The notes: a model not told the origin generated them from the sequence alone. Positions 988 to 30,087 are shown, numbered from the stretch's first letter. The stretch: DNA of 64,000 nucleotides from Acidobacteriota bacterium (GCA_036338435.1 JAYZCG010000037.1:6179-70178); one strand, 5' to 3'. Numbers and translations are program-made.

Positions 988-2163
988 TTAGGCTGGCTTT
1001 ACCCCTTTGACGGTGTTTTCAGCTTTTTGGCGAGCTAGATGATCAACCTCTAATACTGTTTCCAGGTCATTCATTGGAATGGGTTGGTGCTGATTCAAAA
1101 CTTTCTCGACGACCTCTGGAATAGATGAAAATGGTAAAGATCCACTTAGGAAAGAGTGAACGGCTACTTCATTGGCTGCATTTAGAGCAGTGGGATACGT
1201 CTGCCCACTCTCTAATGCCTGATAGGCCAATCGGATACAAGGGAATTTGTTCCAATCGGGCGGATGGAATTCCAGTGCCGAGAGAGAAAGTAGATCTAGT
1301 CGGGGTAAATGCGAGTCCCATCGTTCTGGATATGCAAGGGCGTAGAGGATCGGAGATCTCATGTCCGGGGTGCTCATCTGTGCAAGTACTGTCCCATCTA
1401 CAAATTCTACTAGCGAATGGATGATAGATTGAGGATGAACAACAATAGATATGTGATTGTGGTGGATGCCGAATAGGTGGTGGGCTTCGATAACTTCCAG
1501 TCCTTTGTTCATCAGGGTGGCTGAGTCAATGGTGATCTTGGGTCCCATGGTCCATGTTGGGTGATCCAGAGCCTCTTCAATCGTGACCTCGTTAAGGTGT
1601 TCTGGACTACTGTCAAAGAAAGGGCCCCCTGAAGCCGTTAGAACTAACCGGTGAACCTCTTCATTTTCTGCTCCTCGTAAGCACTGGTGCAGGGCAGAGT
1701 GTTCGCTATCAACGGGGAGCAGAGTGACCTTTTTATCCCGTACAATAGACATTATTAACTCGCCTGCCATCACCAAAGTCTCTTTATTGGCTATCGCAAT
1801 ATCTTTCTTCCCGAGCAAGGCGTGATAGGTCGGCACTAAGCCTGCAGCGCCTTCGATGGCGGCGACCACCATATCTACATCGGAGTGTGTGGCGACTTGG
1901 GTTACACCCTTTTCTCCAGACAAGACTTCAATCGTGGGGAGCCGTTCTCGTAGTTCCTGAGCAGCTTGTTCATTCCACAGAGCAATTGCCTGGGGACGAT
2001 ATTTGAGTGCTTGATCGTATAAAGTATCGACACTCTTCCGGGCGGCTAATGTAGAGACCTGGAAGCGATCAGGATAAAGATCAACGAGGTCTAAAGTACT
2101 TTTGCCAACGGAGCCAGTGGATCCCAAGATTGATAGTTTTTTCAAATCGTCCCATTCTACCAA
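988..2163 (-). CDS. dxr: 1-deoxy-D-xylulose 5-phosphate reductoisomerase
   Basis: 391 aa. N-terminal LSILGSTGSVGKSTLD NADPH-binding motif, with LPVDSEHSA and full-length Dxr-like sequence. Confidence 0.93.
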   Translation of the reverse strand: MVEWDDLKKLSILGSTGSVGKSTLDLVDLYPDRFQVSTLAARKSVDTLYDQALKYRPQAIALWNEQAAQELRERLPTIEVLSGEKGVTQVATHSDVDMVVAAIEGAAGLVPTYHALLGKKDIAIANKETLVMAGELIMSIVRDKKVTLLPVDSEHSALHQCLRGAENEEVHRLVLTASGGPFFDSSPEHLNEVTIEEALDHPTWTMGPKITIDSATLMNKGLEVIEAHHLFGIHHNHISIVVHPQSIIHSLVEFVDGTVLAQMSTPDMRSPILYALAYPERWDSHLPRLDLLSLSALEFHPPDWNKFPCIRLAYQALESGQTYPTALNAANEVAVHSFLSGSLPFSSIPEVVEKVLNQHQPIPMNDLETVLEVDHLARQKAENTVKGVKPA

Positions 2164-2936
2164 ATCAGAAGGAAGTGATAGGCTGGAAGAGCAACAAAGA
2201 GACTGTCAAGACGATCAAGTACGCCGCCGTGACCTGGCAGTAAATTGGAGCTATCTTTGAAATTTGCTGAGCGCTTTATTGTGGACTCGAACAAATCACC
2301 CAGCATACCCGCTGCTGCTAGAACGAGTCCGCTTAGTAGTAGATATAGCATGGACCAGGTTGGCAGAAAATAGTACCCAAATACTATAGCAACGAGAACC
2401 GAACCCAGTAGTCCAGCTAGGTATCCTTCAAGGGATTTGTGCGGGCTAATTTTTTTGATGACTTTGTGTTGTCCCCATTTTCGACCTACTAAATAGGCAA
2501 CTGTATCACCGGCCCAAATTACCGAAAGGATTAGCAACAATTCCTCCCATCGTCCGTTTTTGTGCAGACTTCCAGCAATGGACACGGGAACACTTATGTA
2601 GACGATAGCTAGTAGGTTAGCTGACGCTGAGATGAATCCGCCCTTATCTTTACCAAATTGCAGCACACTATTGCCTATACAGATTAGAGTCGTGAGTATA
2701 AGAAAATTTATTAGCCAGACAGGGGAAAGGATCCATATCCAAGATAGTAATATGGCTAATACAAAGGTGAGTCGGTGTCCTTTAACATTGTGGATGGCTA
2801 GAAGTTTAAAGAGTTCAACAAGGCTCAGAAGGATGATGATATCGAGCAATACGAGGAAAAGATAAAAAGGGAGATAGCGTATAGCAATTATAACTAGGGG
2901 AATCAGCAACCCTGCGGTGGTGACTCGGCGTATCAT
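2157..2936 (-). CDS. cdsA: phosphatidate cytidylyltransferase (CDP-diglyceride synthase)
   Basis: 259-aa polytopic membrane protein lying between uppS and dxr. The C-terminal region GHGGVLDRLDSL matches the CTP-transferase signature. 7-nt overlap with dxr. Confidence 0.8.
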   Translation of the reverse strand: MIRRVTTAGLLIPLVIIAIRYLPFYLFLVLLDIIILLSLVELFKLLAIHNVKGHRLTFVLAILLSWIWILSPVWLINFLILTTLICIGNSVLQFGKDKGGFISASANLLAIVYISVPVSIAGSLHKNGRWEELLLILSVIWAGDTVAYLVGRKWGQHKVIKKISPHKSLEGYLAGLLGSVLVAIVFGYYFLPTWSMLYLLLSGLVLAAAGMLGDLFESTIKRSANFKDSSNLLPGHGGVLDRLDSLFVALPAYHFLLIW

Positions 2937-3724
2937 GATGTACTCTGCAGGGAGGTAAGGCGAATTCCTCCATAACGGCGTTCACGGCTTTGGAATTCCA
3001 CTATTGCTTCAAGTAAATGCCTTCCACGAAAGTCTGGCCAGAGTACCTCGGTAACCGAGATTTCCGCATAGGCAATCTGCCACAGAAGAAAGTTACTAAT
3101 GCGCATCTCTCCACTGGTACGGATCAACAGGTCAGGTTCGGGGAGTCCCTTTGTGTAAAGACTACGTTCTATGTCCTCTTCGCTGATGGGGAAGGTTGTT
3201 GAGTTTTCTAGTAAGCGATTGAAAGCATCCACAAGTTCAGTACGACCGCTATAGTTTAAGGCAACGACCATTCTTGTCCCACCATTTCCACGGGTTTCTT
3301 CTTCTGCATTTTTCAACTCCTTGCGAACTGATGATGGCAGTTCGTCTACACGTCCTATTGCTTGGAACCTAAGATTGTTTTTGTGTATGTTGGGCAGTTC
3401 CATTCGAATGTATTCCTTGAGTAGGCGCATGAGTTGACTAACTTCTCTCTGAGGTCGTTTCCAGTTTTCAGCTGAAAAGGCATAGAGTGTAAGCACTGGA
3501 ATCAATAGCCGAGCAGCAGTTTCGACGACCGCTCTAACTGCAGCAATGCCGGCCCGATGTCCTGCCATGCGTGGCAAATGGCGTTGCTTTGCCCACCGGC
3601 CGTTTCCGTCCATTATTACTGCAACATGCTGAGGGAGTTTGTGGGGGTCAATGCGTTCTAAAAGTTCTATTTCAGGGCTGTGAGGGTCGAATATTCCCTC
3701 AAACTCTTTTGTTAGCTCTTTCAT
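2933..3724 (-). CDS. uppS: isoprenyl transferase (undecaprenyl-diphosphate synthase)
   Basis: HVAVIMDGNGRWA and LTLYAFSAENWKRP motifs. Start moved to the internal MKELTKEF; the ORF-track N-terminal extension is likely non-coding. 4-nt overlap with cdsA. Confidence 0.88.
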   Translation of the reverse strand: MKELTKEFEGIFDPHSPEIELLERIDPHKLPQHVAVIMDGNGRWAKQRHLPRMAGHRAGIAAVRAVVETAARLLIPVLTLYAFSAENWKRPQREVSQLMRLLKEYIRMELPNIHKNNLRFQAIGRVDELPSSVRKELKNAEEETRGNGGTRMVVALNYSGRTELVDAFNRLLENSTTFPISEEDIERSLYTKGLPEPDLLIRTSGEMRISNFLLWQIAYAEISVTEVLWPDFRGRHLLEAIVEFQSRERRYGGIRLTSLQSTS

Positions 3725-3840
3725 TGAGTTGACGGTCACTTTACCATATCTGCATTGACTCAGAAAACTCGGTCTGTATATCACACAGAAGGGTTTGAGG
3801 AAGACACCGATTTTTTGCCGCGTTTATAGTCAATGGAGTA

Positions 3841-4575
3841 TTAGTACCAGGTTTTCATCAGATACAGCCCCTGGGGCGGCGCTGTGGGGCCGGCTGTTTT
3901 GCGATTCTTAGATTTTAAGATTTTGGGGATGTCATCCGATGGTCTTTTGCCGGAGCCAATTTGTAGAAGCGTTCCTACGATATTACGTACCATGTGGTGG
4001 AGAAAACCGTTTGCTTCGACACGGTACGTTATATGGGATCCACATGTTTTGATCTGTGAGAGATGGATTTGGCGGATTCGACTCTTGACTCGCGTGGCTG
4101 CAGCAGCAAATCCTGTGAAATCATGGGCCCCATATAGGTATTGTGTGGCTTTCTGCATAGAACCAACGTCGAGGGGATGCCTCACATGAAGGATGTATCC
4201 GTGGAGGAATGGGGATAACGTAGGGCCGTTGTATATCTGATATTCGTACCGTTTTTTGATGGCATTCTTCTGAGCATGAAAGTTTGACGGAACAGGACTC
4301 AAGTGAATGACTCTAATGTCCCAAGGTAGGATGCCGTTGAGGGAGAGAATAAGTTTTTTTCGAGGAATTGGTTGATCGAGGCTGAAGTGAGCAACCTGTG
4401 CCATGGCGTGTACACCAGAATCAGTTCGACCAGCACCGACTATACTAATGGGATGTCCTGTAATGGTGTTGAGAGCATCCCGCAGCTGGCCCTGGACAGT
4501 ATCCTGATTTTTCTGAATCTGCCAGCCTGCATATCTAGTCCCTACATATTTCAATGTTACTTTATACTTGGCCAT
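3841..4575 (-). CDS. truA: tRNA pseudouridine(38-40) synthase
   Basis: MAKYKVTLKYVGTRYAGWQIQ... GAGRTDSGVHA contains the catalytic Asp motif. Start taken at the internal Met. Confidence 0.85.
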   Translation of the reverse strand: MAKYKVTLKYVGTRYAGWQIQKNQDTVQGQLRDALNTITGHPISIVGAGRTDSGVHAMAQVAHFSLDQPIPRKKLILSLNGILPWDIRVIHLSPVPSNFHAQKNAIKKRYEYQIYNGPTLSPFLHGYILHVRHPLDVGSMQKATQYLYGAHDFTGFAAAATRVKSRIRQIHLSQIKTCGSHITYRVEANGFLHHMVRNIVGTLLQIGSGKRPSDDIPKILKSKNRKTAGPTAPPQGLYLMKTWY

Positions 4576-4691
4576 CGCACCCGCTCCTGCTTGGACGATC
4601 CTATGTAGATGATTAGGTGTCAGCAACTTACTCTGACTGTCCATGTTACAATACACCTCTTACTATACTGGCAAGGGAACACAAAAATATC

Positions 4692-5444
4692 ATGTCAGGA
4701 CATTCCAAGTGGCATTCCATAAGGCACAAGAAGGCTAGTGCCGATTCCAAGAGAGGGAAACTTTTTACTCGCCTAATCAAAGAGATAAGTGTCGCTGCTC
4801 GTCTTGGTGGAGGCGAACTGGATGCCAATCCTAGACTACGGGCAGCTGTGCAGTCAGCCAAAGATGCAAATATGCCTCAGAACAACATCAAACGTGCCAT
4901 TATGAAGGGGACAGGGGAATTGCCAGGTCAAAATTATGAGTCGGTTTCTTATGAGGGATACGGACCTGGAGGTGTGGCTATCCTTGTAGAGGCTCTTACT
5001 GACAACAAGAATCGAACAGTAGCTGAATTGCGCCATATTTTCTCCAAACAAGGGGGGAATTTGGCTGAAACTGGGAGTGTACAGTGGATCTTTGAAAGAA
5101 AAGGATACATTCTTGTGGATTCGGAAAAGGTTACCGAGGAGCAGTTGCTAGAAGTGGCTCTGGAAGCAGGTGCTGAAGATCTGAAATTTGAGGGAAGCAC
5201 TTTTTATATCTACACTGCCATGGAGCATTTTGAGGCGGTCAAACAGGGTCTCGAAGTTGCAGGCATTGCAATCGAATCTGCTACCCTAACGATGGTTTCC
5301 CAGACCGATGTGCGGTTAGCAAACAAACAGGCAGAGCAAATGTTAAAGATCATGGATGCTTTGGATGATCATGAAGATGTGGCCAACACATATGCTAATT
5401 TTGATATTGACGAAGCCCAGATGGAGATATTAGCAGGGACTTGA
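4692..5444 (+). CDS. yebC: YebC/PmpR family DNA-binding transcriptional regulator
   Basis: MSGHSKWHSIRHKKASADSKRGKLFTRL... is a highly characteristic YebC N-terminus. Start moved to the internal Met. Confidence 0.9.
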   Translation: MSGHSKWHSIRHKKASADSKRGKLFTRLIKEISVAARLGGGELDANPRLRAAVQSAKDANMPQNNIKRAIMKGTGELPGQNYESVSYEGYGPGGVAILVEALTDNKNRTVAELRHIFSKQGGNLAETGSVQWIFERKGYILVDSEKVTEEQLLEVALEAGAEDLKFEGSTFYIYTAMEHFEAVKQGLEVAGIAIESATLTMVSQTDVRLANKQAEQMLKIMDALDDHEDVANTYANFDIDEAQMEILAGT

Positions 5445-5467
5445 TAAATGGAGCGGTCAGCGTTTAG

Positions 5468-5992
5468 TTGTATCATGATTCGGTGGTTATTCTAGGAGTT
5501 GATCCCGGTAGTCAAGTGACCGGATACGGACTCATCGACGTTGAAGGGAATCATATCGCCTGTATCGGATACGGAGGTATTGCAGGTACTGTCAAAGGTC
5601 AGTCTAATCTTTTCTCCGATCGGCTGAAACGGATTTATGCAGGGCTGTGCGAGCTATTAAAGCGGCACACTCCAGCCGTGGTGGCGGTAGAAGGCGTCTT
5701 TCATGCCGTGAATGCCAAAAGTGCCCTGAAACTGGGTCAGACCAGAGGCGTTGTCCTGTTAGCTGTGGGACAGTTTGAGATCCCTTTAGTCGAGTACATG
5801 CCTCTGGCCGTCAAGAAAGCAGTGGTTGGGTATGGGAGGGCCAGCAAGGGACAGATTCAAATGATGGTACGCACTCTACTCAATCTCCGAGAAGAACCTC
5901 AGCCCCATGATGCCGCAGATGCCCTTGCCATTGCTTTGTGTCATGCCTTCACTGCTAAAGGAACACAGTCTCTACAGTCTAATCTCAGGTAA
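5468..5992 (+). CDS. ruvC: crossover junction endodeoxyribonuclease RuvC
   Basis: VILGVDPGSQVTGYGLID... carries the RNase H-fold catalytic Asp. Putative TTG start. ruvAB are not adjacent. Confidence 0.88.
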   Translation: MYHDSVVILGVDPGSQVTGYGLIDVEGNHIACIGYGGIAGTVKGQSNLFSDRLKRIYAGLCELLKRHTPAVVAVEGVFHAVNAKSALKLGQTRGVVLLAVGQFEIPLVEYMPLAVKKAVVGYGRASKGQIQMMVRTLLNLREEPQPHDAADALAIALCHAFTAKGTQSLQSNLR

Positions 5993-6085
5993 AGTGATTT
6001 GCGCATTTTCCTTTCCTCCTTTTCCTGTACTTGAGGTTCCACAGTGTTTAATGCATACTTGCCAAAGTCTTGATGAGCTTGGATT

Positions 6086-6820
6086 ATGCATAAATTTTAT
6101 GGTGGGTTTCTGAAGTCATTGGGCCAAAGGTTCTTGTGCTCAGCTAACCCACTTCATGAGGTCTCCAGCGTACGGTCAACTCTGTTTGTGGTGGGGCTTG
6201 TTTTTATTCCTTCCGGTTGTGCGGTTTCTCCAGAAGTGAGTGAGAGTGTTGATGAATCTGTGATAGTTGAAGAAGAGCTAGATGTTCCGGGTGAACCGCA
6301 TGCTGTTCTAGTAACGGATCGGGGTAATCTTGTAATTCAATTATTGCCAGAGCTAGCACCTAAAACTGTAGAGAACTTTGTAGAACTGGCGGAAACAGGT
6401 TTTTACGCTCGTACCGTATTTCACCGGATAATACCTAACAAAATGGTTCAGGGAGGCGATCCTAATTCCAAGGATAACGATCCTTACAACGACGGTCAGG
6501 GGAATAGTGGAAAATTCCTTAAGGCTGAGTTTAGTTCATACCCTTTTTCTCGCGGAATGGTTGCCATGGCTCGCCAGCCAGGGGATCCCAATTCTTCTAG
6601 TAGTCAATTTTTCATTGTCCTAGAACGTTCTCCCGAGTGGGATGGTGACTACACGATATTCGGAAAGGTGGTTGAGGGGATCGATGTAGCTGATCAGATT
6701 TCAAGAATCCCCTTATCCAATGATGTGAGGTTGCGAGGACGGCCCGCTGTGTCCATCCGTATTAGACGGATCATGATCGAATCTAGAGTAGTTGAGGAAG
6801 AGTCTAAAGAGGCAGAGTAG
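6086..6820 (+). CDS. peptidyl-prolyl cis-trans isomerase, cyclophilin type, secreted
   Basis: N-terminal hydrophobic signal region followed by a cyclophilin core (FHRIIPNKMVQGGDP... MVAMARQPGDPNSSSSQFFIV). The exact start is uncertain. Confidence 0.85.
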   Translation: MHKFYGGFLKSLGQRFLCSANPLHEVSSVRSTLFVVGLVFIPSGCAVSPEVSESVDESVIVEEELDVPGEPHAVLVTDRGNLVIQLLPELAPKTVENFVELAETGFYARTVFHRIIPNKMVQGGDPNSKDNDPYNDGQGNSGKFLKAEFSSYPFSRGMVAMARQPGDPNSSSSQFFIVLERSPEWDGDYTIFGKVVEGIDVADQISRIPLSNDVRLRGRPAVSIRIRRIMIESRVVEEESKEAE

Positions 6821-6877
6821 CGTCCGATAGGGTGTGGGGCATTTCCGTCAAGAACTTGTCGAGGGAATTGTGGGTTT

Positions 6878-7516
6878 CTAGTCTTCTTTTTCCAAGCGTT
6901 GATCGCCTCGGTACTGGCCAATCCGAACACGTGCAGGACGGAGCACTTGATCATCCCATCGAAATCCGGCCTGTAGTACTTCCGTGACGTGGGAGTCAAG
7001 TGTTGGGTCATCTACGGGAACTGTTCCGACAGCTTCGGACTCGTGTGGATTGAACGGTTGATGGAGCACTTCCATAGGTTCAATCCCAATGAATTTCAAC
7101 TTGCTCAGGAGGAGATCTAAGTTAAGCTGAACACCCTCTCTCAGATTTTCCGGAGTAGATGCTTTGTCAGCCGACTGGAGAGCTCGTTCAAAATTGTCAA
7201 TAATCTCCAAAAAGTTGTGAAAAAGGTCAAGTTTCTCTTGGGTTAATTGACGTTCGAAATCCTTTTGGAGTCGTGCCCTATAGGCTTCGTTTTCCTCGTC
7301 TATCTGTGTGAGCTTTTCCTTGAGTGTGTGCTCAGCCAGTTCGGTCCTTGCCTTGAGTTCTTCGACTATAGTTGGATATTTTTTATGCGATTCGGAAGCC
7401 TCTTCGACTGTAGACTCTTCTTGAGCCCAGAAGCGACGATCCGTTACACGCATTCTGGGAGTTGTCTCAGTATCTTCTTTAGATTCTGGAAGTTTGCTCG
7501 GTTTTTGCTTTGTCAT
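6878..7516 (-). CDS. grpE: nucleotide exchange factor GrpE
   Basis: Coiled-coil N-terminal region followed by a GrpE C-terminal beta-domain (GIEPMEV... VLQAGFRWDDQVLRPARVRI). dnaK lies 32 kb away rather than adjacent. Confidence 0.85.
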   Translation of the reverse strand: MTKQKPSKLPESKEDTETTPRMRVTDRRFWAQEESTVEEASESHKKYPTIVEELKARTELAEHTLKEKLTQIDEENEAYRARLQKDFERQLTQEKLDLFHNFLEIIDNFERALQSADKASTPENLREGVQLNLDLLLSKLKFIGIEPMEVLHQPFNPHESEAVGTVPVDDPTLDSHVTEVLQAGFRWDDQVLRPARVRIGQYRGDQRLEKED

Positions 7517-7653
7517 ATTTACATGCTCTCTAGACGAATATAAGATTTGAATGATCCTGGGTCAAACTTAGCACAGGGATAGGGTGGATCTATCGTGGAT
7601 TCATGGACAGAGTTGATCTCTATAGATAGAGTTGGCCTGATCGAAGGCCCGCT

Positions 7654-9018
7654 CTATTTTTTCTTCATTAAATACAGCACCCGCTCACTCTCAGCAATGG
7701 GAGCCGATGCTTCAATCGTGAATGTTTCCCGGAACTCCCGTTCAAATCCTTGCTGGGTGTAGTCGGGGAAAATGTCCTCTCGTGTGGACAGGAGTCGCTT
7801 CACCTGGGAGTCGGTCTTGGGAACAAACTCAATAATGAGATGTTTGCAGATTTGTCCCAGGAAGGCTGAGATGTGGGCGAAAGGAAGGTTGTTTGAGATG
7901 GCCAGATGGTGAATGAGGGCCAAGGCCAAAACCGTATCGGCTGGCCCACGCTCGATCAGCGAAGTTCTCTCTTGGTTGCCCCAGCCGATTCCCGGACTCG
8001 GGTTGGTCAAATCGAGCAACAGGGGAAGGATCTCGGTTTCTCCCCGCTTGACGCTTTCCCGGTAATGGTTCTCGACGGCCCACGAATCGATATCGAAGCA
8101 AACAGTCAGGTGATTTCGTTCGGCGGCCAAGCGAGCAAACAATCCCGTATTAGTCCCCAGATCCCAAGCCATTCCCGGCCTGATTCTATCCAGAAACTTA
8201 CCCACCAGCCGCTTCTTCTCCTCCAGGGCTACCGAGGAGTAGTTGGTTGCATCGTAATAGTCGGCCCATTCGGTCGAATCGCCCTTCCATCTCAGCCGTT
8301 TCACGATGGTCTGCAGGTTGTCCACTATTCCGAGAAGAGCGGTGCGGCTGACATGGCGTTTGGTGGGGACTTGCTTGCTGGAGAAGTATTTTTGGCTCTT
8401 GGCATGAAGGTGAATATGAACCCATAGGGAAGGCCTGAGAAGAGTGGTGATGGGCAGCAGGGATCTCGCCAGGTCCAGCGGGACTCCATCGATGTGAATG
8501 CGAAGCAGTTGGCTCAGGCGGATGTCGCGGTAGACCATCAATAGGAGCGGTGCGAGAAAGTGCTGGCAAAACTGTCGGTAGGCTACCCATGGCTCTCCTT
8601 CTAGATATTTTTCAAAAGAAAGCGTGTCGATTAGCAGCGCAGACCCCTCCTTGAACTGAATGTTGTAGGCGCTGCTGTCCTTCAGGGTCATTCCAAAATC
8701 GAGTGCTCGGGCCTGAATTTCGAGGGTCGTTAAGGCTGCCTCCTTCAACTGGCTGAAGCACCACTCATAGGGGTAGGAGATAAAAGGGATCCGCTCGGGT
8801 GCCAGGATCCTATGGAACTCGGAATGATCTTTTTCCAGAGGAATGTCGACTTCCCGGTGAGGAATCAAAAGCTTGCTCTCGACCAGCGCGTCGTATAGCC
8901 CTGAGGACATCAACAGGTCGTAGTGGTCCCCATAAACCGGGTTGACCTGGCGGTAGAGCTGATGATCGCGAGAGAAGAGAAAGCCGCTGGGGTCCCGGAA
9001 AGAGGCCGGAAGTTTCAT
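7654..9018 (-). CDS. two-domain enzyme: N-terminal atypical protein-kinase-like/phosphotransferase-like domain fused to a C-terminal class I SAM-dependent methyltransferase
   Basis: C-terminal MAWDLGTNTGLFARLAA (motif I), VCFDID (motif II) and LALALIHHL are a classical Rossmann methyltransferase. The N-terminal ~290 aa contain LKDSSAYNIQF (D-x4-N catalytic-loop-like) and LLIDTLSFE (DFG/IDxE-like), resembling APH/Kdo-kinase folds. Start placed at MKLPASFRDPSGFLF (9018), which overlaps the upstream small ORF's stop by ATGA. Function is inferred. Confidence 0.6.
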   Translation of the reverse strand: MKLPASFRDPSGFLFSRDHQLYRQVNPVYGDHYDLLMSSGLYDALVESKLLIPHREVDIPLEKDHSEFHRILAPERIPFISYPYEWCFSQLKEAALTTLEIQARALDFGMTLKDSSAYNIQFKEGSALLIDTLSFEKYLEGEPWVAYRQFCQHFLAPLLLMVYRDIRLSQLLRIHIDGVPLDLARSLLPITTLLRPSLWVHIHLHAKSQKYFSSKQVPTKRHVSRTALLGIVDNLQTIVKRLRWKGDSTEWADYYDATNYSSVALEEKKRLVGKFLDRIRPGMAWDLGTNTGLFARLAAERNHLTVCFDIDSWAVENHYRESVKRGETEILPLLLDLTNPSPGIGWGNQERTSLIERGPADTVLALALIHHLAISNNLPFAHISAFLGQICKHLIIEFVPKTDSQVKRLLSTREDIFPDYTQQGFEREFRETFTIEASAPIAESERVLYLMKKK

Positions 9019-9245
9019 GGGTCCTTGTCTTCTGGGCTGGTGGAGAAAAGTGCGGTGAAAAAGAGCTTGATCCTTCTCCAATAGACCTTGATCGCCAGAA
9101 AAAACGCAAAGAAGGCGGCCACCATCGCCTGAACCACCATACTGCCAGTGCCGGGGTCGAGGTAGGCGTGAACGGTGGGGGGATAGAGCACAAAGGTCAC
9201 TCCCAGCAAAAGGACAAGTTTGGTCGAGGTTTTCCAAGCTTTCAT
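9015..9245 (-). CDS. small membrane protein (76 aa), translationally coupled to the downstream kinase-like/methyltransferase gene
   Basis: MKAWKTSTKLVLLLGVTFVLYPPTVHA reads as a signal-peptide/TM-like segment. It is followed by YLDPGTGS, a second hydrophobic helix and a basic WRRIK cluster. AGGAGA lies 11 nt upstream of the ATG. Its stop shares ATGA with the next gene's start. Confidence 0.45.
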   Translation of the reverse strand: MKAWKTSTKLVLLLGVTFVLYPPTVHAYLDPGTGSMVVQAMVAAFFAFFLAIKVYWRRIKLFFTALFSTSPEDKDP

Positions 9246-9729
9246 GGATCGATGCTTCTCCTGTTGCCTGTAATGATTATCCTCTTTTCATGAGAAGTTG
9301 GCAAGCCTCAGACTCCCAGGAAAAAGTGTCATTTGTCCCGGATACTCAGAGCAGAGGAAGGTCAATCTAAACCCGAGACTTTCTCTTTTTGAATGGTCCA
9401 CAAATGTGGGAGCTGGCCATTCACCTGTCCCAAAAGGATGTGCGAGCGACGATTATCTGCACGCTTGGCATCGCGTCTGCATGATCACTATCAGTGGGTG
9501 GCAACGTTCTCTGTTAAGTTCTCCCCATTGCCCTCACATGGATTGTCCACCCACACCCTGTTCATATCCACCGACACTGACTCCACCGCCCATGAAGCGT
9601 TTCTTAACTTCTTTTCTCCCTGACAATACTTCGGTCCAGAGAAGGAAATCCCTGTGCACTCGGCGATGCTGAGTATTCCATAGTTTGCATGCCCCTTGTC
9701 CAACTGATTTTAGTGAGTAGAATGTAGGA

Positions 9730-12700
9730 ATGGGGACGAGACCAAATTTTATCACGCATGCCCTTCACCTCTTCATTCTAGTCGCTTTTGCAATCGCACA
9801 ACCTGTGTTCGACTTACTGTCTAGCAACGCAGAGTTTTTTGTTGCCCGGCAATCTAAACCGATCGACATTATTCTTCTGATCTTGATCGTCTGTCTTCTT
9901 CTCCCTTTACTACTAATTCCTTTAGAGGCAATCGCCGCTCTGGTTGGTCGTCAGTTCCAGAAATGGGTGCACGGTATTTTGGTAGCCCTCCTCCTGGCGG
10001 CAATCTGCCTTCAAATTCTGAAGCTGATTCCGGGTGTGCCCGGTGCTGCACTGGTCATTGGAGCATTGTGTGCAGGCTCAGCAATCTCGGTCGTCTACTC
10101 GAATTTCCATCTTGCTCAGACGTACGTCAGCGTGCTATCGCCCGCTATTTTGATTTTCGCTTCGCTGTTTTTATTGGATTCACAGATTTACAAGATCGTG
10201 TTTGAAGTCCAAGACACGGAGGTCACCTATCCGGACATTGACGCCACTGCTCCTGTGGTCATGATAGTTTTCGACGAATTTCCTCTGATTTCATTGTTAG
10301 ATGAGAACCGTCAGATCGATGGAGTCCGATACCCGAATTTTGCGGCTCTGGCGAGAGAATCGCACTGGTTTAGAAATGCAACTACGGTCAGCGAGGGAAC
10401 CCTAATCTCAATTCCTGCCATGTTAAATGGTCTTTACCCCAATTTTGAAAATCCTCGGTTGCCGATCTTGAGTGACCATCCCCATAACCTCTTCACGTTG
10501 ATGGGTGGTTCCTACGACCTTCACACCCTTGAAAATAGTACGCAATTGTCCCCAGAGAAATCATTCCTCAATCGACAGACGCTGGCCGAACGGATGAGCG
10601 CCCTACTGTCAGACTTGACCATTGTATATCTACATCTTCTCTTGCCAGCGGACTTGGTCAGCGACCTGTCCCGAATCACGGAGTCCTGGAAGGACTTCAG
10701 ATCCCCCAATACGGAGGAGAGGAAGAGGTGGGAGGACTTCGAAACTGACTGGTCAAGACGTCAACTGAAATTCTTGGAGTTTGTCGATTCCATTCATGAT
10801 ACCGGACAGCCCACTTTGCATTTTTTCCACTCCATGCTGCCTCATGCGAGCTGGAAATACCTCCCCAGTGGAAAGCTCTATACGTTATATGAGAGACCAG
10901 GAGTCAAAGGAGTGATCGGACCGAATAATGTAGGCGAAGACGTCAATCGATGGCGGAACGACGACTGGCTTGTTACTCAAGGTCATCAGCGACATCTTCT
11001 TCAGGTTGGTTTCGTGGACAAGCTGCTAGGAGTGTTCGTCTCTAAACTAAAGAAAGCTGGTGTTTATGATTCGTCCCTGATTGTGATCACCGCCGACCAT
11101 GGAGCTAGCTTTCGGGCCAACGATTCACGGAGATCCGTGACCAAGACGAACTACGCCGATATTATGTCGATCCCCCTATTCATTAAGGCGCCTTACCAAA
11201 AGGAAGGGGTAACGAATGATCGCAATGTGGAAACAATCGACATCCTTCCCACAGTCGCTGACGTTCTTGACATTCCTTTTCCGTGGAAGGTCGATGGGCA
11301 TTCAATGCTGGATAACTCTCAGCCGGAAAGAAGGGAGAAGCTTATTTTTTCCGATCGGGGCGAGAAGTTCGCATTCGATGCAAGACTCGAAGTCAAGTAT
11401 GAGAGCCTGAAGAGAAAACTGGTACGTTTTAACTCAGGACCTTGGGATCGACTATTCACAATCGGTCCCTATCCAGACCTGGTTGGAAAGAGGGTTGCAG
11501 AAATAGATGTGTCAGGAACGGCTGGCATGACAGTGGAAGTTAATGGGAAAAGTTTTTTTAATCACGTTGATGTCGACTCCTCGTTTGTCCCTGCTCAGAT
11601 CACAGGCCGAATAGTTTCGAACTCCGATTCCAAGCACTCACTTGACCTAGCGATCTCTGTCAATAACACGATTCGGGCAATTACACGCAGTTCGTCTCAA
11701 TTCGCCGCTGACGAGGAGTTCTCCGCAGTTGTTCCGGAGTCAGCTTTTCGAAGTGGAGAAAACGATGTGGAGGTCTTTGTGGTGATCGACGTGAATGGAA
11801 AACCTTGGCTGGCCAGCACGAAGGAGGCTCCGGAGGTGGAATTCTCAATTTCGTTGTCAGATCAGCTTGGTGAGATGCTGATTTCTTCAAACGGGAAACG
11901 CATACCCGTTAAAGTGAAGGACCTTTCAGGATGGGTTGGGGCCAGGATCGATGATGAGACAGACCGAGTGGAAATACGGGGTTGGGCCGTAGATCAAAAG
12001 CAGTTGAGTGTCCCAAGTGTCATTCTGGTTTTCAGGGATGAAGAGCTTCTCTATTCAGGAAAGACCAGTGTGGCAAGACCTGAAATTGCGACTGAATTCG
12101 GTTCCGAAGCGCTTTTGAATTCGGGATTTCTGTACGAGTTCCCCGTAGAAGAGTTCGACGAGCTTGCCCATACGGAACTCCGAGTTTTCGCGGTGTCCGA
12201 TCGAGATTCCGCTTCAGAATTAGGTCATCCTGAAAAAAACACCTCATTCTGGCCTTTTGGACCCAACCCGGAAGCTTCTGGGAAAGTGTCTCAATATGAT
12301 TGGGATTCAACGATTCGATTTGGCGCTGGTGGAAATGCGCGGCAATATCAGGGTCGTGGTTGGTCTGTTGCGGGGGAGGGGCATACGTGGACTGTTGGAC
12401 CAGAAGCTTCGCTCGTCCTGGCAGCCTCCGAACCTGAGTCTTCCGTGCTCTTGAAGGCCTTGGTGAAAGCCTTCCTAGTGTCGGAACGGCTCAATGAGCA
12501 GAGAGTGCGTGTTTCAGTTAATGGCCAGATGGTGGGGGAGTGGACGATTGCTGGTTCCGAGTTCGAGGAGCGAACAGTCCTTGTGCCTGCGGGACTGCTG
12601 ACCGAACCGGAAAAGACAGTTATTGTGTTCGAGACACCTGACTCGTCCATTCCCGCCCAACTCGGACTTGGTTCTGACAAGCGGAAACTGGGAATTGCCT

Positions 12701-12738
12701 TCCACCAAATCAGTTTAGTTCAACATCAGGACCGCTGA
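9730..12738 (+). CDS. membrane-anchored sulfatase-like (alkaline-phosphatase superfamily) hydrolase/transferase with ~450-aa C-terminal domain of unknown function
   Basis: 1002 aa. About 5 N-terminal TM helices, then a sulfatase-like core (VMIVFDEFP...ITADHGASF). This is the LtaS/OpgB/EptA-type architecture. The C-terminal half (aa ~550-1002) has no family I can name. Divergent from the 9015-9245 operon across a 484-bp intergenic region. Confidence 0.72.
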   Translation: MGTRPNFITHALHLFILVAFAIAQPVFDLLSSNAEFFVARQSKPIDIILLILIVCLLLPLLLIPLEAIAALVGRQFQKWVHGILVALLLAAICLQILKLIPGVPGAALVIGALCAGSAISVVYSNFHLAQTYVSVLSPAILIFASLFLLDSQIYKIVFEVQDTEVTYPDIDATAPVVMIVFDEFPLISLLDENRQIDGVRYPNFAALARESHWFRNATTVSEGTLISIPAMLNGLYPNFENPRLPILSDHPHNLFTLMGGSYDLHTLENSTQLSPEKSFLNRQTLAERMSALLSDLTIVYLHLLLPADLVSDLSRITESWKDFRSPNTEERKRWEDFETDWSRRQLKFLEFVDSIHDTGQPTLHFFHSMLPHASWKYLPSGKLYTLYERPGVKGVIGPNNVGEDVNRWRNDDWLVTQGHQRHLLQVGFVDKLLGVFVSKLKKAGVYDSSLIVITADHGASFRANDSRRSVTKTNYADIMSIPLFIKAPYQKEGVTNDRNVETIDILPTVADVLDIPFPWKVDGHSMLDNSQPERREKLIFSDRGEKFAFDARLEVKYESLKRKLVRFNSGPWDRLFTIGPYPDLVGKRVAEIDVSGTAGMTVEVNGKSFFNHVDVDSSFVPAQITGRIVSNSDSKHSLDLAISVNNTIRAITRSSSQFAADEEFSAVVPESAFRSGENDVEVFVVIDVNGKPWLASTKEAPEVEFSISLSDQLGEMLISSNGKRIPVKVKDLSGWVGARIDDETDRVEIRGWAVDQKQLSVPSVILVFRDEELLYSGKTSVARPEIATEFGSEALLNSGFLYEFPVEEFDELAHTELRVFAVSDRDSASELGHPEKNTSFWPFGPNPEASGKVSQYDWDSTIRFGAGGNARQYQGRGWSVAGEGHTWTVGPEASLVLAASEPESSVLLKALVKAFLVSERLNEQRVRVSVNGQMVGEWTIAGSEFEERTVLVPAGLLTEPEKTVIVFETPDSSIPAQLGLGSDKRKLGIAFHQISLVQHQDR

Positions 12739-13076
12739 GGTTGAGATCCCGGTCGGGCAGACGTCGGTAAATCTAGTCAACTCAGGTTGGGAAGCAGGAT
12801 CTTCTCACGCCGTTGAACTGGTTTACAAAGATGCGAAGGGCAACACCAATTCTGTAAGCGGGGGTCATTTACGTCCGGTAGAGTCCAACTGAATGATGGA
12901 ACTTCACTCGGCACGAGAAAACAGCTATTGACCATATACTGACCACCCAAAATCACAACGAACCACAACCATTCGATTTGAGTGACTTTGCCGAGAGGCA
13001 ATGAAAGTAATGAGAAGCCTGATAAACCGTTAATAATAATGGGGTTTAACCCTGTTTTGTGCTTTCTCAAAGTAGA

Positions 13077-14606
13077 TTATGAATCGGGGATGAGCAGGAC
13101 TTGGCCCCGGAGGATTCGGTGAGGATTTTTAATGTGGTTGGCTTGTTGTAGTTGCCATATGGAAATGCCGAATCGAGTGGCAATCCTTTCCAATGTGTCG
13201 CCCCGCCTTACTTGATATTGGTCAGGTCTAGATGGATTGTCTGTAGTTCCGGTAACATAAAGTAACTGATCCGGATATATTCGGTTGGCATTGGAGATGT
13301 TGTTGTCCTGCTGTAACAGACGGATGGATGTTCCCAGATTTTTAGCGATATAGCTTAAGGTGTCTCCATACTGAACACGGTAGGCTACCGAACCATTAGC
13401 AGTCACGAAGGTCTGGGTTGACAATGTGGTGGCTGAGTCCAAAGCCATTTGCACAGTCTCTCTCATACCTTTTGGAAGCCGTAGGGTAAGACCGCGCGGG
13501 AGAATTTTGGATTTTTGCCAGATGGGCTGGCGAATCTGGGGATTGTATTCTTGGATTATTTCTTCACTCAAATCGGGGATGCTGGTGATGTGGATAAGGT
13601 GATGGGATCGATCAAGAACTAGGCTATCAAATTGTATCGGTTCAGCAATATTCAAGTGGCCAAAGTAGTCGTTGTAATTACGGGCTACGTCTACGGCAGC
13701 AAGGAATTCAATGTAAAAATTTTTACTGGCATATCCAAAGGTTGGAGATGTGTAGTGGTTGATGATCATTTCAAGATCATTACCGTAAAGCCTCTTAGCC
13801 CTTGCCATTCCGTTACGACCATGGTTGAAAGCTGTGATGGCCAGTGGCCAACTCCCTAGGGTTTTGTAGTTCTGCTGTAGCAAACGTGCGGCAGCCTCAG
13901 TTGCTTTTAATGGATCGAGTCGTTCGTCAACGTAGCTATTGATGGTCATGTATTGGCGCCCAGTGCTGCGAATGAATTGCCAAATCCCAGCTGCTCCTCG
14001 TTTAGAATAGGCACCGTGATCAAAAGATGACTCCACGTGTGGAAGTAGAGCTAACTCTTTTGGAACGTTGTGTTGCTCGAGAATTTTTTCAATGCTATCG
14101 AGATATTTACCCGAACGGATAAGACTTTCTCTGAATTTTTCTTTGATACCGCGCTGAGAGTGGATATTGCGTATTAATCGTTCAAGTTCTGCCGATGTAG
14201 GGGTGTACCCGTGAGACTTTAAAATCCTAATAATCCGTTTATGTTCCTCAGTGAGCCGATTGGAAGTAGATCCCCATTTGCGAATATCATCCATGATTGT
14301 CTGGAGTTCTCGTTCCCTTGTTTCAAGTTCTCTCTTTTGACGTTCGGATGCGACGTTATCATTGGGAACACTCTTACCAACCTGTGCCACATCGTAGATC
14401 AGTTGGAGATCATTCTGATCGTGGAAAACGACCTCTCCCTCTCCATAGTGAGTGAAGATTGCTTTCCAGAACTCTAGTTTTTCCTCAAGTCCTTCAAGAG
14501 GGAACTGATCAGAAATTTGTTCTAGTTGAAAAGATCCGAGGAAAAGGCCCGATGGTAGGGAGAGAAGTAGGCATAAAAACCTGAACATGAGGGGTGATGT
14601 TAGCAA
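13077..14606 (-). CDS. mltD: lytic transglycosylase (MltD-like) with two C-terminal LysM domains
   Basis: Signal peptide, an SLT catalytic region (LPHVESSFD... AAGIWQF) and two LysM repeats (YRVQYGDTLSYIAKNLG..., YQVRRGDTLERIATRFG...). Confidence 0.85.
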   Translation of the reverse strand: MLTSPLMFRFLCLLLSLPSGLFLGSFQLEQISDQFPLEGLEEKLEFWKAIFTHYGEGEVVFHDQNDLQLIYDVAQVGKSVPNDNVASERQKRELETRERELQTIMDDIRKWGSTSNRLTEEHKRIIRILKSHGYTPTSAELERLIRNIHSQRGIKEKFRESLIRSGKYLDSIEKILEQHNVPKELALLPHVESSFDHGAYSKRGAAGIWQFIRSTGRQYMTINSYVDERLDPLKATEAAARLLQQNYKTLGSWPLAITAFNHGRNGMARAKRLYGNDLEMIINHYTSPTFGYASKNFYIEFLAAVDVARNYNDYFGHLNIAEPIQFDSLVLDRSHHLIHITSIPDLSEEIIQEYNPQIRQPIWQKSKILPRGLTLRLPKGMRETVQMALDSATTLSTQTFVTANGSVAYRVQYGDTLSYIAKNLGTSIRLLQQDNNISNANRIYPDQLLYVTGTTDNPSRPDQYQVRRGDTLERIATRFGISIWQLQQANHIKNPHRILRGQVLLIPDS

Positions 14607-25630: not shown

Positions 25631-26143
25631 ATGGAATCCATTCTTTTTTACATTTTGGCAGGGATATTGGTTGTTTTTGCCATTCTCACGGTGACGGCAC
25701 ACAATCCAGTACGAAGTGCTGTCTACCTGATCTCAGCCCTCTTGGCTACAGCAGGACTCTTCTTTTTGTTGGAAGCAGAATTTTTGGGGGCCGTCCAGAT
25801 TTTGGTGTATGTAGGGGGGATAATGGTCCTGTTCCTCTTTGTCATTATCCTGGTTAACGTGCGTGAGATGGAAGCGCAGCGAAGAGCAAGTCGACAGTGG
25901 AAAACTGCTGTGGTGTTGGGGGTGGTACTATCTTGTGAGTTCATTATCTTTGTGGTGCGAGGGGCTGATATCTTTTCAGCAGAAGCGATGAACTCATCTC
26001 TGGTCGTTGGGACGCAAACTCACAACACAGAATCAGTCGGTAGACTTCTTTATAGCACCTATCTTTTACCTTTTGAAATAGCTTCTATTTTGTTATTGGT
26101 GGCCATGGTGGGTGCTGTGGTCTTGACCATGAAGGAACACTAG
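25631..26143 (+). CDS. nuoJ: NADH-quinone oxidoreductase subunit J
   Basis: 170-aa ND6-like membrane protein in operon position. A 100-nt gap precedes it. Confidence 0.85.
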
Positions 26144-26148
26144 CAAGT

Positions 26149-26451
26149 ATGGTGGATATTGGGCACTATCTAATTTTAAGTACCGTTGTTTTCACTATCG
26201 GCGTGATCGGAGTGTTGACGAGACGCAATGTAATTATCATTTTGATGTCCATTGAGTTGATGCTTAACGCCGTCAACTTGAATCTGATTGCTTTTTCTGA
26301 CCACCTTCACAGTCTTTCGGGTCAAGTATTTGCAGTTTTTGTCATTACAGTGGCCGCTGCTGAGGCAGCCGTGGGGTTAGGTATTGTGATTGCGCTTTTC
26401 AGCAACAAAGAGACGGTCAATGTCGACGAAATAGATTTGATGAAAGGATAG
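26149..26451 (+). CDS. nuoK: NADH-quinone oxidoreductase subunit K
   Basis: 100-aa, 3-TM ND4L-like protein with a conserved Glu in TM2/3. Confidence 0.9.
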
Positions 26452-26454
26452 TGG

Positions 26455-28524: not shown

Positions 28525-28527
28525 CCG

Positions 28528-30087
28528 ATGAGTTTTTTTATGGAAAACATTTTAACCATAGTGTGTTTTTTCCCGCTACTCGGAGTAGCACTCATTGTAG
28601 TGTGGCCCAAGGGAAAGGAACATGACCAAAGTATCAAGTGGATAGCCAATCTCGTGGCTCTCATTGGTTTCTTCATTTCGCTACCGCTGATAACTGAGTT
28701 CAACAATGTTCAGTACATCGACTCGGAAACCGGGATGAGGTTTGTGTTCAAAGCGGATTGGATTCCCACCATTGGGGCACAGTACTCTTTTGGTATTGAT
28801 GGAATCAGTATGTTACTGATTCTGTTGACAACACTTATGGGGTTTATTGCTATTCTTTCTTCCTGGACTGCCGTAACTGAACGGGTCCGGGAGTACTATT
28901 GTTATTTTCTATTGTTACAAGTAGGAATGCTCGGTGTTTTTATGGCACTGGACTTCTTTCTCTTCTACGTTTTTTGGGAAGTAATGTTGGTGCCCATGTA
29001 TTTCATCATTGGAGTATGGGGGGGACCCAGAAGACTTTATGCCGCGATCAAGTTCTTTCTTTACACTTTAGCTGGATCGGTTCTTCTTCTGCTTGGCATT
29101 CTAGCGCTTTATTTTTACCAGCACAGTGTAACCGGTGTCTGGTCCTTCGATGTATTGGCCATGCAACAGTTAAACATCCCCATGGGTCTCCAGACCTGGA
29201 TTTTTCTAGCTATGTTTTTTGGGTTTGCCATTAAGGTACCCATGTTTCCCTTTCACACTTGGCTTCCCGATGCACATGTAGAGGCTCCTACGGCTGGTTC
29301 TGTAATTCTGGCTGCCATCCTGCTAAAAATGGGAACCTATGGGTTTGTGCGCTTTAGCCTACCCATTCTTCCTGAAGCCACCATGTTTTTTCTCTACCCT
29401 TTGCTAGTTTTGTCGGTTATCGGAATCATCTATGGTGCTCTGGTGGCCATGATGCAAAAGGATATGAAGAAACTCGTGGCATATTCTTCGGTAAGTCACT
29501 TGGGGTTTTGCATGCTGGGAGTTTTTGTTGCTACCCCGGTGGCATTGGAAGGGGGCATCCTGCAAATGATAAACCATGGAGTTTCCACCGGAGCTCTTTT
29601 TCTGATTGTGGGTATCATTTATGAAAGGCGGCACACACGCATGATTGCCGATTTTGGAGGCCTTTCCCTTATCATGCCAGTTTACGCTACTGTTTTTCTG
29701 ATTATGACTCTTTCATCCATTGGCATGCCTACGCTGAACGGATTTATTGGGGAATTTATGGTTTTGCAAGGCGTTTTTGCTGATCCCACCTATAGGCTGT
29801 GGGCTGTATGGGGTGCGGTAGGCATAGTTTTAGGGGCAGCCTATATGTTGTGGCTCTACCAGCGGGTAATGTTCGGCAAGTTGGAGCATGAGGAGAACCG
29901 GAATCTTCCCGATCTTAATTGGCGTGAGATGGCAACGTTTGTTCCGCTGATTATCCTGGCGTTCTGGATCGGTCTTTACCCAAAGACTTTCTTAGATTAT
30001 CTGCATGAGCCGGTAAATCAAATCGTTGAGAGGGTACGTCCTAATGAATTTTCACCTTTGCCGGCACAGGCTTTCTTGAGGGAATAA
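28528..30087 (+). CDS. nuoM: NADH-quinone oxidoreductase subunit M
   Basis: 519-aa antiporter-like ND4 homolog. Confidence 0.93.
   Translation: MSFFMENILTIVCFFPLLGVALIVVWPKGKEHDQSIKWIANLVALIGFFISLPLITEFNNVQYIDSETGMRFVFKADWIPTIGAQYSFGIDGISMLLILLTTLMGFIAILSSWTAVTERVREYYCYFLLLQVGMLGVFMALDFFLFYVFWEVMLVPMYFIIGVWGGPRRLYAAIKFFLYTLAGSVLLLLGILALYFYQHSVTGVWSFDVLAMQQLNIPMGLQTWIFLAMFFGFAIKVPMFPFHTWLPDAHVEAPTAGSVILAAILLKMGTYGFVRFSLPILPEATMFFLYPLLVLSVIGIIYGALVAMMQKDMKKLVAYSSVSHLGFCMLGVFVATPVALEGGILQMINHGVSTGALFLIVGIIYERRHTRMIADFGGLSLIMPVYATVFLIMTLSSIGMPTLNGFIGEFMVLQGVFADPTYRLWAVWGAVGIVLGAAYMLWLYQRVMFGKLEHEENRNLPDLNWREMATFVPLIILAFWIGLYPKTFLDYLHEPVNQIVERVRPNEFSPLPAQAFLRE

Follow-up and report, generated by a model that had tools for sequence, protein, structure and literature searches.

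Which reaction does a membrane protein carry out that joins a sulfatase-type catalytic domain to a long C-terminal half, and on which substrate does it act? This question is raised by a complete gene at 9730..12738 on the plus strand of a 64,000-nucleotide (nt) stretch of DNA from an Acidobacteriota bacterium (GCA_036338435.1, JAYZCG010000037.1:6179-70178), which was analyzed as a whole and is hereafter called the window. On the evidence of its open reading frame (ORF), its identity to an NCBI entry and an AlphaFold2 model, the gene encodes a membrane-anchored, sulfatase-fold protein of 1002 amino acids (aa) belonging to the alkaline-phosphatase (AP) superfamily. A first-pass annotation made from the sequence alone had ascribed to this protein the architecture of LtaS and EptA, and had noted a divergently transcribed kinase/methyltransferase neighbor. 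We consider that the protein is, on balance, probably an EptA- or LtaS-like enzyme that transfers a phospho-group to an envelope glycan, and we find its family linked across phyla to a kinase-methyltransferase and a small membrane protein.

The ORF begins with an ATG and its product is identical to NCBI MEE2822444.1, a protein from an Acidobacteriota metagenome-assembled genome (MAG) that is annotated as 'sulfatase-like hydrolase/transferase'. In a database search, 2381 of the 8000 candidates scored were significant homologs, many of them full length. Given the identical NCBI protein and these homologs, this is not a chance ORF, and the first-pass annotation located it correctly: every string quoted from it is present in the translation, with VFDEFP at aa 180-185, ITADHGASF at 453-461, RGWAVDQKQ at 750-758, and VNGQMVGEWTI and LGLGSDKRKLGIAFHQISL near the C-terminus. 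The homologs fall into two main length classes, one of ~840-870 aa (~83% query coverage) and one of ~1000 aa (99%). Scanning the protein against Pfam returned Sulfatase (PF00884) as the sole match (aa 201-515, E=4e-21, 76 bits against a cut-off of 25), which places the protein within the AP superfamily; nothing significant was found beyond aa 540, so that the description of the C-terminal half as unassigned was accurate at the level of Pfam. It is the only sulfatase-fold gene within the window.

To describe the architecture, we used an AlphaFold2 model of the full protein, built on 110 homologs, with a mean predicted local distance difference test score (pLDDT) of 90.8 and a predicted template modeling score (pTM) of 0.82. 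The helices of this model and a hydropathy scan delimit an N-terminal membrane domain (aa 1-157; 9730..10200, plus strand) consisting of five transmembrane helices, at about aa 6-32, 44-72, 74-97, 105-125 and 127-149, and a short interfacial helix; within this domain, H13, Q24, P25 and F36 are invariant among the homologs. As the number of transmembrane helices is odd, the rest of the protein should lie outside the cytoplasm, and we infer an extracytoplasmic placement of the catalytic and beta domains from this helix count and by analogy with EptA and LtaS. The polytopic N-terminus followed by a sulfatase core that had been read from the sequence is borne out by the five long N-terminal helices and the Pfam Sulfatase domain. 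A polytopic anchor (five helices, aa 6-149) joined to an AP domain with a threonine nucleophile outside the membrane, in the orientation that we propose here, is the arrangement of the transferase class. Searching with the full model in Foldseek returned matches to the catalytic domain only, with poor TM-scores, and none to the membrane domain.

The predicted extracytoplasmic catalytic domain (aa ~170-580; 10237..11469, plus strand) was delimited by the Pfam match, residue conservation, alignment to EptA, and Foldseek and profile matches, and its alpha/beta fold extends from ~aa 176 to ~580 in the model. Candidate catalytic residues, all on the plus strand, are D182/E183 (nt 10273-10278), the putative nucleophile T224 (nt 10399-10401), H372 (nt 10843-10845) and D456/H457 (nt 11095-11100). 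Among the 110 homologs, whose overall identity to the query is only about 40-50%, these residues are almost invariant: D182, H372 and D456 are found in all 110, H457 in 109, E183 in 108 and T224 in 107, with two Ser and one Asn in the remainder. The nucleophile and the metal-binding Asp/Glu and Asp-His residues of the AP superfamily are thus all present and conserved. The first-pass annotation had asked for these residues, with loss of the nucleophile as the sign of a pseudo-enzyme; with T224, E183, H372, D456 and H457 retained, the protein looks catalytically competent.

The surroundings of T224 follow the EptA/MCR-type motif T-x-x-S-[VI]-P-x-M-[FL], which can be aligned to E. coli EptA position by position: F-R-N-A-T-T-V-S-E-G-T224-L-I-S-I-P-A-M-L is placed against F-P-N-T-A-S-C-G-T-A-T-A-V-S-V-P-C-M-F, which includes the EptA/MCR nucleophile motif T-x-x-S-V-P-C-M-F. 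The threonine aligned with T224 is the nucleophile of the EptA/MCR family (Thr285 in MCR-1, flanked by the Cys281-Cys291 disulfide). The HxxxxH and (A/S)DHG motifs are likewise shared, with hhalign pairing HSMLPH372 and ADH457G with HTIGSH and SDHG of EptA; the overall hhalign probability was 6.8%, with only the H...DHG segment aligned. The formylglycine motif C/S-x-P-x-R is absent at the nucleophile position, which reads T-L-I-S-I, with both Pro and Arg replaced by Ile. The nucleophile therefore appears to be of the transferase kind rather than of the sulfatase kind.

The region beyond the catalytic domain had been described as a single module of ~450 aa, which does not agree with the model: the catalytic fold reaches to ~aa 580, and three separate beta-sandwich domains follow. 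These are domain 1 (aa ~590-700; 11497..11829; strands at 594-699 in the model, supported by tblastn), domain 2 (aa ~705-835; 11842..12234; strands at 705-830, supported by the homolog consensus) and domain 3 (aa ~855-1002; 12292..12735; modeled at 861-998, supported by phmmer relatives), all on the plus strand. A separate AlphaFold2 model of aa 580-1002 reproduced the same three domains with a pLDDT of 91.4. Searches of the Protein Data Bank (PDB) with the single protein and with a family profile found no solved structure covering this region, and Pfam scans of the isolated C-terminal half and of nine long homologs gave no family for domains 1 and 2. The suggestion that the C-terminal half binds carbohydrate, and that its structure might be a beta-sandwich resembling a carbohydrate-binding module (CBM), gained support at the level of fold and context: the domains are jelly rolls superposable on known CBMs of the CBM6/35/36/60 group, and the proteins that share domain 3 point in the same direction.

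The three domains differ in how widely they are retained. Of 83 related loci compared by tblastn, 50 had domain 1, 14 had domain 2 and only four had domain 3. Matches to the protein end at about aa 685 in loci from Actinomycetota, Planctomycetota and many other groups and at about aa 835 in several loci from Acidobacteriota and Desulfobacterota, and only a few loci reach aa 1000. Of the post-catalytic domains, domain 1, with invariant G626, F673 and N678, is retained most widely in the family; domain 2, with conserved GWA.D, RP[DE], SGF and RVFA motifs, is found in both the ~850-aa and the ~1000-aa forms; and domain 3 is confined to family members of ~1000 aa. The beta domains are thus layered in evolution, with domains 1 and 2 as part of the family core and domain 3 as an accessory. 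A recent triplication was ruled out, as hhalign found no significant mutual similarity among the three domains (best probability 22%).

Domain 3 can be followed beyond the family. Using it as a phmmer query yielded 3558 representative proteins at E<=1e-3, which often contained two to six tandem copies. Among 73 carriers scanned, Sulfatase was matched by 24 and DUF7024 by nine (best E=1.9e-17), other carriers matched PMT_2 (a GT-C family), AlgX-type SGNH, GDSL or a YidC-like domain, and one GT4-GT4 carrier matched CBM60 above threshold. The domain in the window closely follows the repeat consensus GWS..E...TWT.G ... NG.....W ... P[DE]..SP..LG...D.R.LG. Its sequence has no direct match to DUF7024 (PF22895), and phmmer relatives (E 1e-33 to 1e-37) match DUF7024 in the same region (P0290 at 257-381, P0276 at 911-1022). 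We therefore regard domain 3 as a divergent mobile module that appears to be distantly related to DUF7024 and CBM60 and to travel alongside envelope-glycan-modifying membrane enzymes. In one family member of 1320 aa (P0078), a C-terminal GDPD (glycerophosphodiester phosphodiesterase, PF03009) domain replaces the domain-3 module, which hints that some family members handle glycerophosphodiesters.

On the minus strand, upstream of the gene, lies a two-gene partner operon. The divergent neighbor that the first-pass annotation had reported is real, but it most likely starts at Met74 of the long ORF from which it was read, and a gene preceding it had been missed. The long ORF (7654-9237) contains 73 codons upstream of the conserved Met74 that overlap a small ORF in another frame; starting at Met74 would give a 454-aa protein at 7654..9018. 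This exact 454-aa sequence is absent from the protein collection that was searched, and public gene calls probably use a different start. The small ORF, the first gene of the operon (9015..9245, minus strand; identified as an ORF and by tblastn), overlaps the next gene by 4 nt and encodes a 76-aa membrane protein, annotated at NCBI as the hypothetical protein MEE2822442.1, with a signal-peptide-like N-terminus, a conserved AYLDPGTGS motif, one transmembrane helix and a basic tail (WRRIK). By tblastn, it matches small ORFs upstream of homologs of the 454-aa protein.

The 454-aa protein is predicted to be cytoplasmic, with a kinase-like N-terminal part and a class I S-adenosylmethionine (SAM) methyltransferase C-terminal part, as judged from a PDB profile search and invariant residues. 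Its family is very large and highly conserved (identity of about 62-66% across Dehalococcoidia, Phycisphaerae, Eisenbacteria and Anaerolineales), and the annotation of its members goes no further than 'SAM-dependent methyltransferase' or 'PrmA'. When a profile of 29 partner sequences was compared to the PDB, the best match was WbdD (E=1.8e-4), aligned over three stretches: SAM motif I, a segment with an invariant His-His pair and, weakly, the kinase catalytic loop ('lkD..ayN....fiDvlSf' in the partner and 'hdD..pWN....lIDfGSi' in WbdD). In all 29 sequences, D114, N119, D131, the motif D286-G-x-N-x-G292 (D286, G288, N290, G292) and H370/H371 are invariant; the partner thus has the kinase Asp/Asn, the Mg-binding Asp, SAM motif I and the His-His pair of WbdD. 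In WbdD, N356 and D369 bind Mg-ATP, while H132 and H133 line the phosphate site, and mutation of either abolishes phosphate methylation (PMC3482155). The order and context differ: WbdD, the O-antigen chain terminator of E. coli O9a, is arranged as methyltransferase, kinase and a C-terminal coiled-coil ruler within an O-antigen ABC-transporter cluster, whereas the partner has the kinase-like part first, lacks the coiled coil and, instead of lying in such a cluster, is accompanied by a small membrane protein and by an AP-superfamily enzyme of the periplasm. With WbdD as best PDB match and the catalytic residues invariant, the earlier label of 'kinase/MT' was reasonable, and the partner is best described as a permuted WbdD-like kinase-methyltransferase.

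We then considered how consistently these genes occur together. In GTDB genomes, 25 of ~70 loci of the target family have a homolog of the kinase-methyltransferase directly adjoining the sulfatase-fold gene, and no other neighboring gene family is conserved among these loci. Where the kinase-methyltransferase is present (28 loci), the small ORF can be detected in 21. The pairing is found in Acidobacteriota, Actinomycetota (including the cultured Micromonospora sp. CPCC 205556, L043), Planctomycetota, Chloroflexota and Desulfobacterota. Eight long-form relatives (~1000 aa) were inspected, and the partner adjoins the gene in six of them, in several arrangements: divergent in the window and in L170, co-directional in the order small protein, methyltransferase, target in L002 and L169, with the target first in L008, and convergent in L007. 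In L170, a second sulfatase-fold paralog of 621 aa lies downstream of the methyltransferase, forming an operon with the small ORF and the kinase-methyltransferase (1278-4738, minus strand) that is divergent from the 1018-aa long-form paralog (5001-8057, plus strand); therefore, one genome can pair the core with two different sulfatase-fold enzymes. The persistence of the linkage through rearrangement and across phyla argues for a functional connection.

Searching from the side of the partner gave a similar picture. In metagenome loci anchored on the kinase-methyltransferase, a small D[PAS]G[TS][GS] ORF lies immediately upstream in 62/71, and a sulfatase-fold ORF immediately downstream in 45 of the 67 that have at least 600 nt downstream. 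Most of these downstream enzymes are short (~490-550 aa), lack beta domains and form a rather divergent type. In a hidden Markov model of such short-type partners of ~500 aa (e.g. L085:8386-9849), 'lqADEGp' was aligned to 'ITADHGA' (aa 453-459) of the window's protein, and the metal-binding His may be replaced by Glu in the short-type enzymes. Taken together, the core of the module consists of the small protein and the kinase-methyltransferase, with the sulfatase-fold enzyme as a usual but variable third member, of which the window's protein is an elaborated version. Clustering the neighborhoods of 70 family loci revealed no conserved glycosyltransferase, transporter or regulator; as glycosyltransferase genes occur in only eight loci and none is conserved, no acceptor pathway can be read from the context. 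A reading of the trio as a BREX/Pgl-like system (kinase, methyltransferase and PglZ) was rejected, as PADLOC gave no defence-system match for the trio and only a marginal match for the methyltransferase.

By analogy with EptA, LtaS, OpgB and BcsG, the following mechanism can be proposed for a transferase. The enzyme would be a polytopic protein of the cytoplasmic membrane whose catalytic domain faces the periplasm, and its membrane domain would present a lipid-linked phosphodiester to the active site. T224 would attack the phosphorus to form a covalent phospho-enzyme, from which the phospho-substituent would be passed to a hydroxyl of an extracytoplasmic glycan, held or selected by the three C-terminal jelly-roll (CBM-like) domains. 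On the cytoplasmic side, the small protein and the kinase-methyltransferase may prepare or pre-modify the substrate by phosphorylation and then methylation. Because the family occurs in phyla without lipopolysaccharide (LPS) and no conserved glycan-synthesis genes accompany it, the acceptor would be either a widespread envelope component or one supplied by the module. It is tempting to speculate, from the phosphorylate-then-methylate chemistry of the partner, that the phosphodiester handled in the periplasm is made by the module itself. The earlier interpretation as an envelope-polymer transferase is supported by the Thr motif, the five-helix anchor and the conserved active site; such a motif, together with a five-helix anchor in one chain with the catalytic domain, marks out lipid-donor transferases such as EptA, LtaS, OpgB and BcsG (background in 10.64898/2026.09.23.753746).

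A number of observations weigh against this reading. Compared with NCBIfam models, the protein scored far below the cut-offs for LtaS (34.5 bits against 970, with only aa 427-515 aligned), OpgB (17 against 572) and LapC_YejM_PbgA (14.4 against 825), and EptA and MCR were not among the significant PDB matches in either the single-protein or the family-profile search. The C-terminal part of the catalytic domain has profile scores nearer to soluble phosphonate monoester hydrolases (PMHs) and S1 sulfatases than to LtaS, and sequence alone does not separate a transferase from a hydrolase. The likeness of the beta domains to CBMs is at the fold level only (7-16% identity), and domain 3 of the window reaches 13.6-15.7 bits against Pfam CBM60, below the cut-off of 28.2. 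The kinase part of the WbdD match is significant only within the summed score and not by itself. Lastly, the linkage is incomplete: the long-form loci L001 and L168 have no partner within their flanks, about a third of the kinase-methyltransferase loci have no detectable sulfatase-fold gene immediately downstream, and in a minority of loci the downstream position is taken by unrelated genes or by a 330-350-aa protein with two transmembrane helices and no Pfam family. Five of the latter (L127:2086-3120, L131:5726-6715, L149:3745-4794, L155:7412-8476 and L165:7540-8538) are 47-77% identical among each other, and this protein may be an alternative third partner.

Where, then, does the catalytic domain belong? 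The NCBIfam models for PehA (49.6 bits against 900) and arylsulfatase (46.7 against 481) also remained under their cut-offs, and neither the EptA N-terminal domain family nor any other EptA model in Pfam or NCBIfam matched at E<=1. In the family-profile search of the PDB, the best matches were PMHs (4upk at E=2.8e-25; 2vqr and 2w8s at about 1e-14 to 1e-15) together with S1 sulfatases, while LtaS and LtaP structures followed at about 1e-7. Foldseek gave a probability of 1.0 for many sulfatase-fold structures, with target-normalized TM-scores of only 0.43-0.52. The tests against every characterized subfamily that we tried thus failed, leaving the protein without membership in any of them, and the full-length match to a characterized family that the first-pass annotation had named as a refutation did not appear. 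The LtaS/EptA architecture stood as regards the five helices, the sulfatase fold and the Thr motif, but not as regards the LtaS cut-off or a match to an EptA model. The catalytic domain therefore forms a separate clade, in which the nucleophile half looks EptA-like and the Asp-His half PMH/sulfatase-like.

Among the rival explanations, a periplasmic membrane-tethered hydrolase deserves most attention. Such a phosphodiesterase or PMH-like enzyme would remove or trim a phospho-ester, for instance a methyl-phosphate installed by the partner, from an exported glycan bound by the CBM-like domains. In its favor are the promiscuous PMH/phosphodiester hydrolases (4upk, 2vqr, 2w8s) and S1 sulfatases that precede LtaS among the catalytic-domain matches, the charge of a methyl phosphodiester, which by our reasoning equals that of PMH substrates, and the additional GDPD domain in one family member. 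The matched PMHs and S1 sulfatases use a formylglycine made from C/S-x-P-x-R, however, and this motif is missing around T224; moreover, the Thr motif and fused five-helix anchor are typical of lipid-donor transferases, and a simple hydrolase would have no need for a conserved polytopic domain with invariant F36, H13, Q24 and P25. We therefore find a hydrolase unlikely, while keeping it in consideration. A genuine formylglycine-dependent sulfatase acting on sulfated polysaccharides is opposed by the nucleophile site, since formylglycine cannot form where Thr occupies the nucleophile position in 107/110 homologs and Pro/Arg are replaced by Ile/Ile. The Pfam family name and the top Foldseek matches, which are carbohydrate sulfatases with appended CBM-like domains, suggest it, but given the low TM-scores to these sulfatases we hardly give it credence.

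Two further possibilities were considered. PbgA/YejM (LapC) also combines five transmembrane helices with a periplasmic sulfatase-fold domain, and the protein has a weak match to the corresponding NCBIfam model (E=0.0087), so that it could be a catalytically silent sensor or regulator, with the sulfatase-fold and beta domains serving solely to bind a ligand, either lipid or glycan. The score is far under the cut-off for that family, and the nucleophile and metal ligands are retained in 107-110 of the 110 homologs at 40-50% identity, which indicates selection for catalysis; a silent sensor is accordingly very improbable. An acidobacterial phosphoethanolamine transferase for lipid A or the LPS core, i.e. 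an orthologue of EptA, EptB or EptC with extra domains, would fit the EptA-type nucleophile motif, the five helices and the host, a MAG of the diderm Acidobacteriota. The missing EptA matches in the model and PDB searches speak against it, as does the occurrence of family and module in Actinomycetota (including Micromonospora) and Chloroflexota, which are phyla without LPS, and the conserved partner is a WbdD-like, glycan-type kinase-methyltransferase rather than a PmrAB-type regulator. We give such an orthologue very little chance.

The transferase reading can be extended to the trio as a whole, although we consider this extension rather doubtful. The three genes would then form a self-contained envelope-decoration system of a hitherto undescribed kind. 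In the cytoplasm, a membrane lipid or a lipid-linked glycan would first be phosphorylated and then methylated by the WbdD-like enzyme, which would yield a dedicated phosphodiester such as lipid-O-P(O2)-OCH3. This would serve as the activated donor for the Thr enzyme in the periplasm, where ATP is absent, allowing methyl-phosphate to be transferred onto glycans bound by the CBM-like domains or, alternatively, methanol to be displaced and the phospho-glycan ligated to an acceptor. The small YLDPGTGS protein would act as a membrane scaffold, or even as the acceptor. Such a system would explain why no other conserved gene accompanies the trio, why it is spread over monoderm and diderm phyla, and why the catalytic domain resembles PMHs and phosphodiesterases.

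Returning to the transferase as such, comparison with known systems shows where its novelty would lie. Like EptA and MCR-1, the protein has five N-terminal transmembrane helices followed by an outward-facing sulfatase-fold domain; unlike EptA, its membrane domain has no detectable similarity, about 420 extra residues form three beta domains, and its family occurs in monoderm phyla and has a kinase-methyltransferase and a small membrane protein as partners. With LtaS, LtaP, GacH and OpgB it shares a polytopic anchor and a Thr-nucleophile AP domain and, by analogy, the logic of a lipid phosphodiester donor and a glycan acceptor; however, only the D-H-G half of its catalytic domain aligns with LtaS and OpgB, and the C-terminal beta domains are additional. 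For the catalytic fold, especially at aa 420-540, PMHs and S1 sulfatases (e.g. 4upk, 2vqr, 6pt6) give the best matches in both sequence and structure, and many carbohydrate sulfatases also bear CBM-like appendages, but these are soluble enzymes with a formylglycine nucleophile. The jelly-roll modules CBM35, CBM36, CBM6 and CBM60 share the fold at 7-16% identity, domain 3 appears distantly related to CBM60 and DUF7024, and domains 1 and 2 lack any sequence family. BcsG-BcsB of phosphoethanolamine-cellulose synthesis differs in that here the transferase itself carries the CBM-like domains, and no cellulose synthase genes are nearby. WbdD resembles the partner in that a single polypeptide carries both a kinase and a class I methyltransferase, and the kinase-loop D/N/D and the His-His pair are preserved throughout the partner family.

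EptA/MCR, LtaS, OpgB, BcsG and GacH tune the charge of the bacterial envelope and cause polymyxin resistance. To our knowledge, all characterized membrane-anchored AP-superfamily transferases take their donors from bulk phospholipids and work either singly or together with a synthase. The combination of transferase-type catalytic logic, fused glycan-binding-like domains and a dedicated kinase-methyltransferase and micro-protein has not been seen together before, and the literature on DUF7024, on WbdD with sulfatases and on AP-superfamily transferases with CBMs, as far as our incomplete coverage of it goes, does not describe the family or the module. The family is large, with thousands of sequences from at least five phyla, and many lineages from soil and sediment that have not been cultured are among its carriers. 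Should the linkage be functional, it would point to an envelope modification that has gone unrecognized, perhaps with phospho-methyl or a different small phospho-ester, in Acidobacteriota, Actinomycetota, Planctomycetota and Chloroflexota, and would provide a function for families labeled 'sulfatase-like', 'SAM-dependent methyltransferase/PrmA' and 'hypothetical', as well as a context for DUF7024. If the protein is only another phosphoethanolamine or glycerol-phosphate (GroP) transferase with CBMs, the result is a routine improvement in annotation.

Between the two divergent transcription units lies an intergenic region of 484 bp (9246..9729) with promoter-like sites on both strands, which are consensus matches only: TTGCCA-17-GATAAT at 9304-9276 on the minus strand, and TTGTCC-16-TAGAAT at 9696-9723 on the plus strand, ending 7 nt before the ATG of the target gene. 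No properly spaced Shine-Dalgarno sequence was found upstream of this ATG, and the target mRNA may be leaderless. An Rfam scan of 9000-13200 at E<=1 gave no match, hence no known RNA element was detected in the intergenic region or the gene. The other neighbors in the window are housekeeping genes (GrpE, SLT-LysM, shikimate kinase, EPSP synthase, UvrB, YebC and RuvC) that are not conserved with the family. Between the stop codon of the target and the gene for the SLT-LysM lytic transglycosylase (13077-14606, minus strand), an ORF of 97 aa (12777-13070, minus strand) has no Pfam match and no homolog in related loci, and may not be a gene.

Outside the window, the long-form homolog P0005 (44% identical; L168:1-13027) is located amid an integrase, a resolvase and three transposase genes, with no kinase-methyltransferase nearby, and this gene may have been transferred horizontally on its own. 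Within the window, the GC content across the module (8001-12000) is mildly raised, at 0.52/0.49 compared with about 0.45-0.47 for most of the window. Further downstream, a run of large plus-strand ORFs (26455-36715) coincides with a strongly negative AT skew (-0.16 to -0.24) at 26001-36000.

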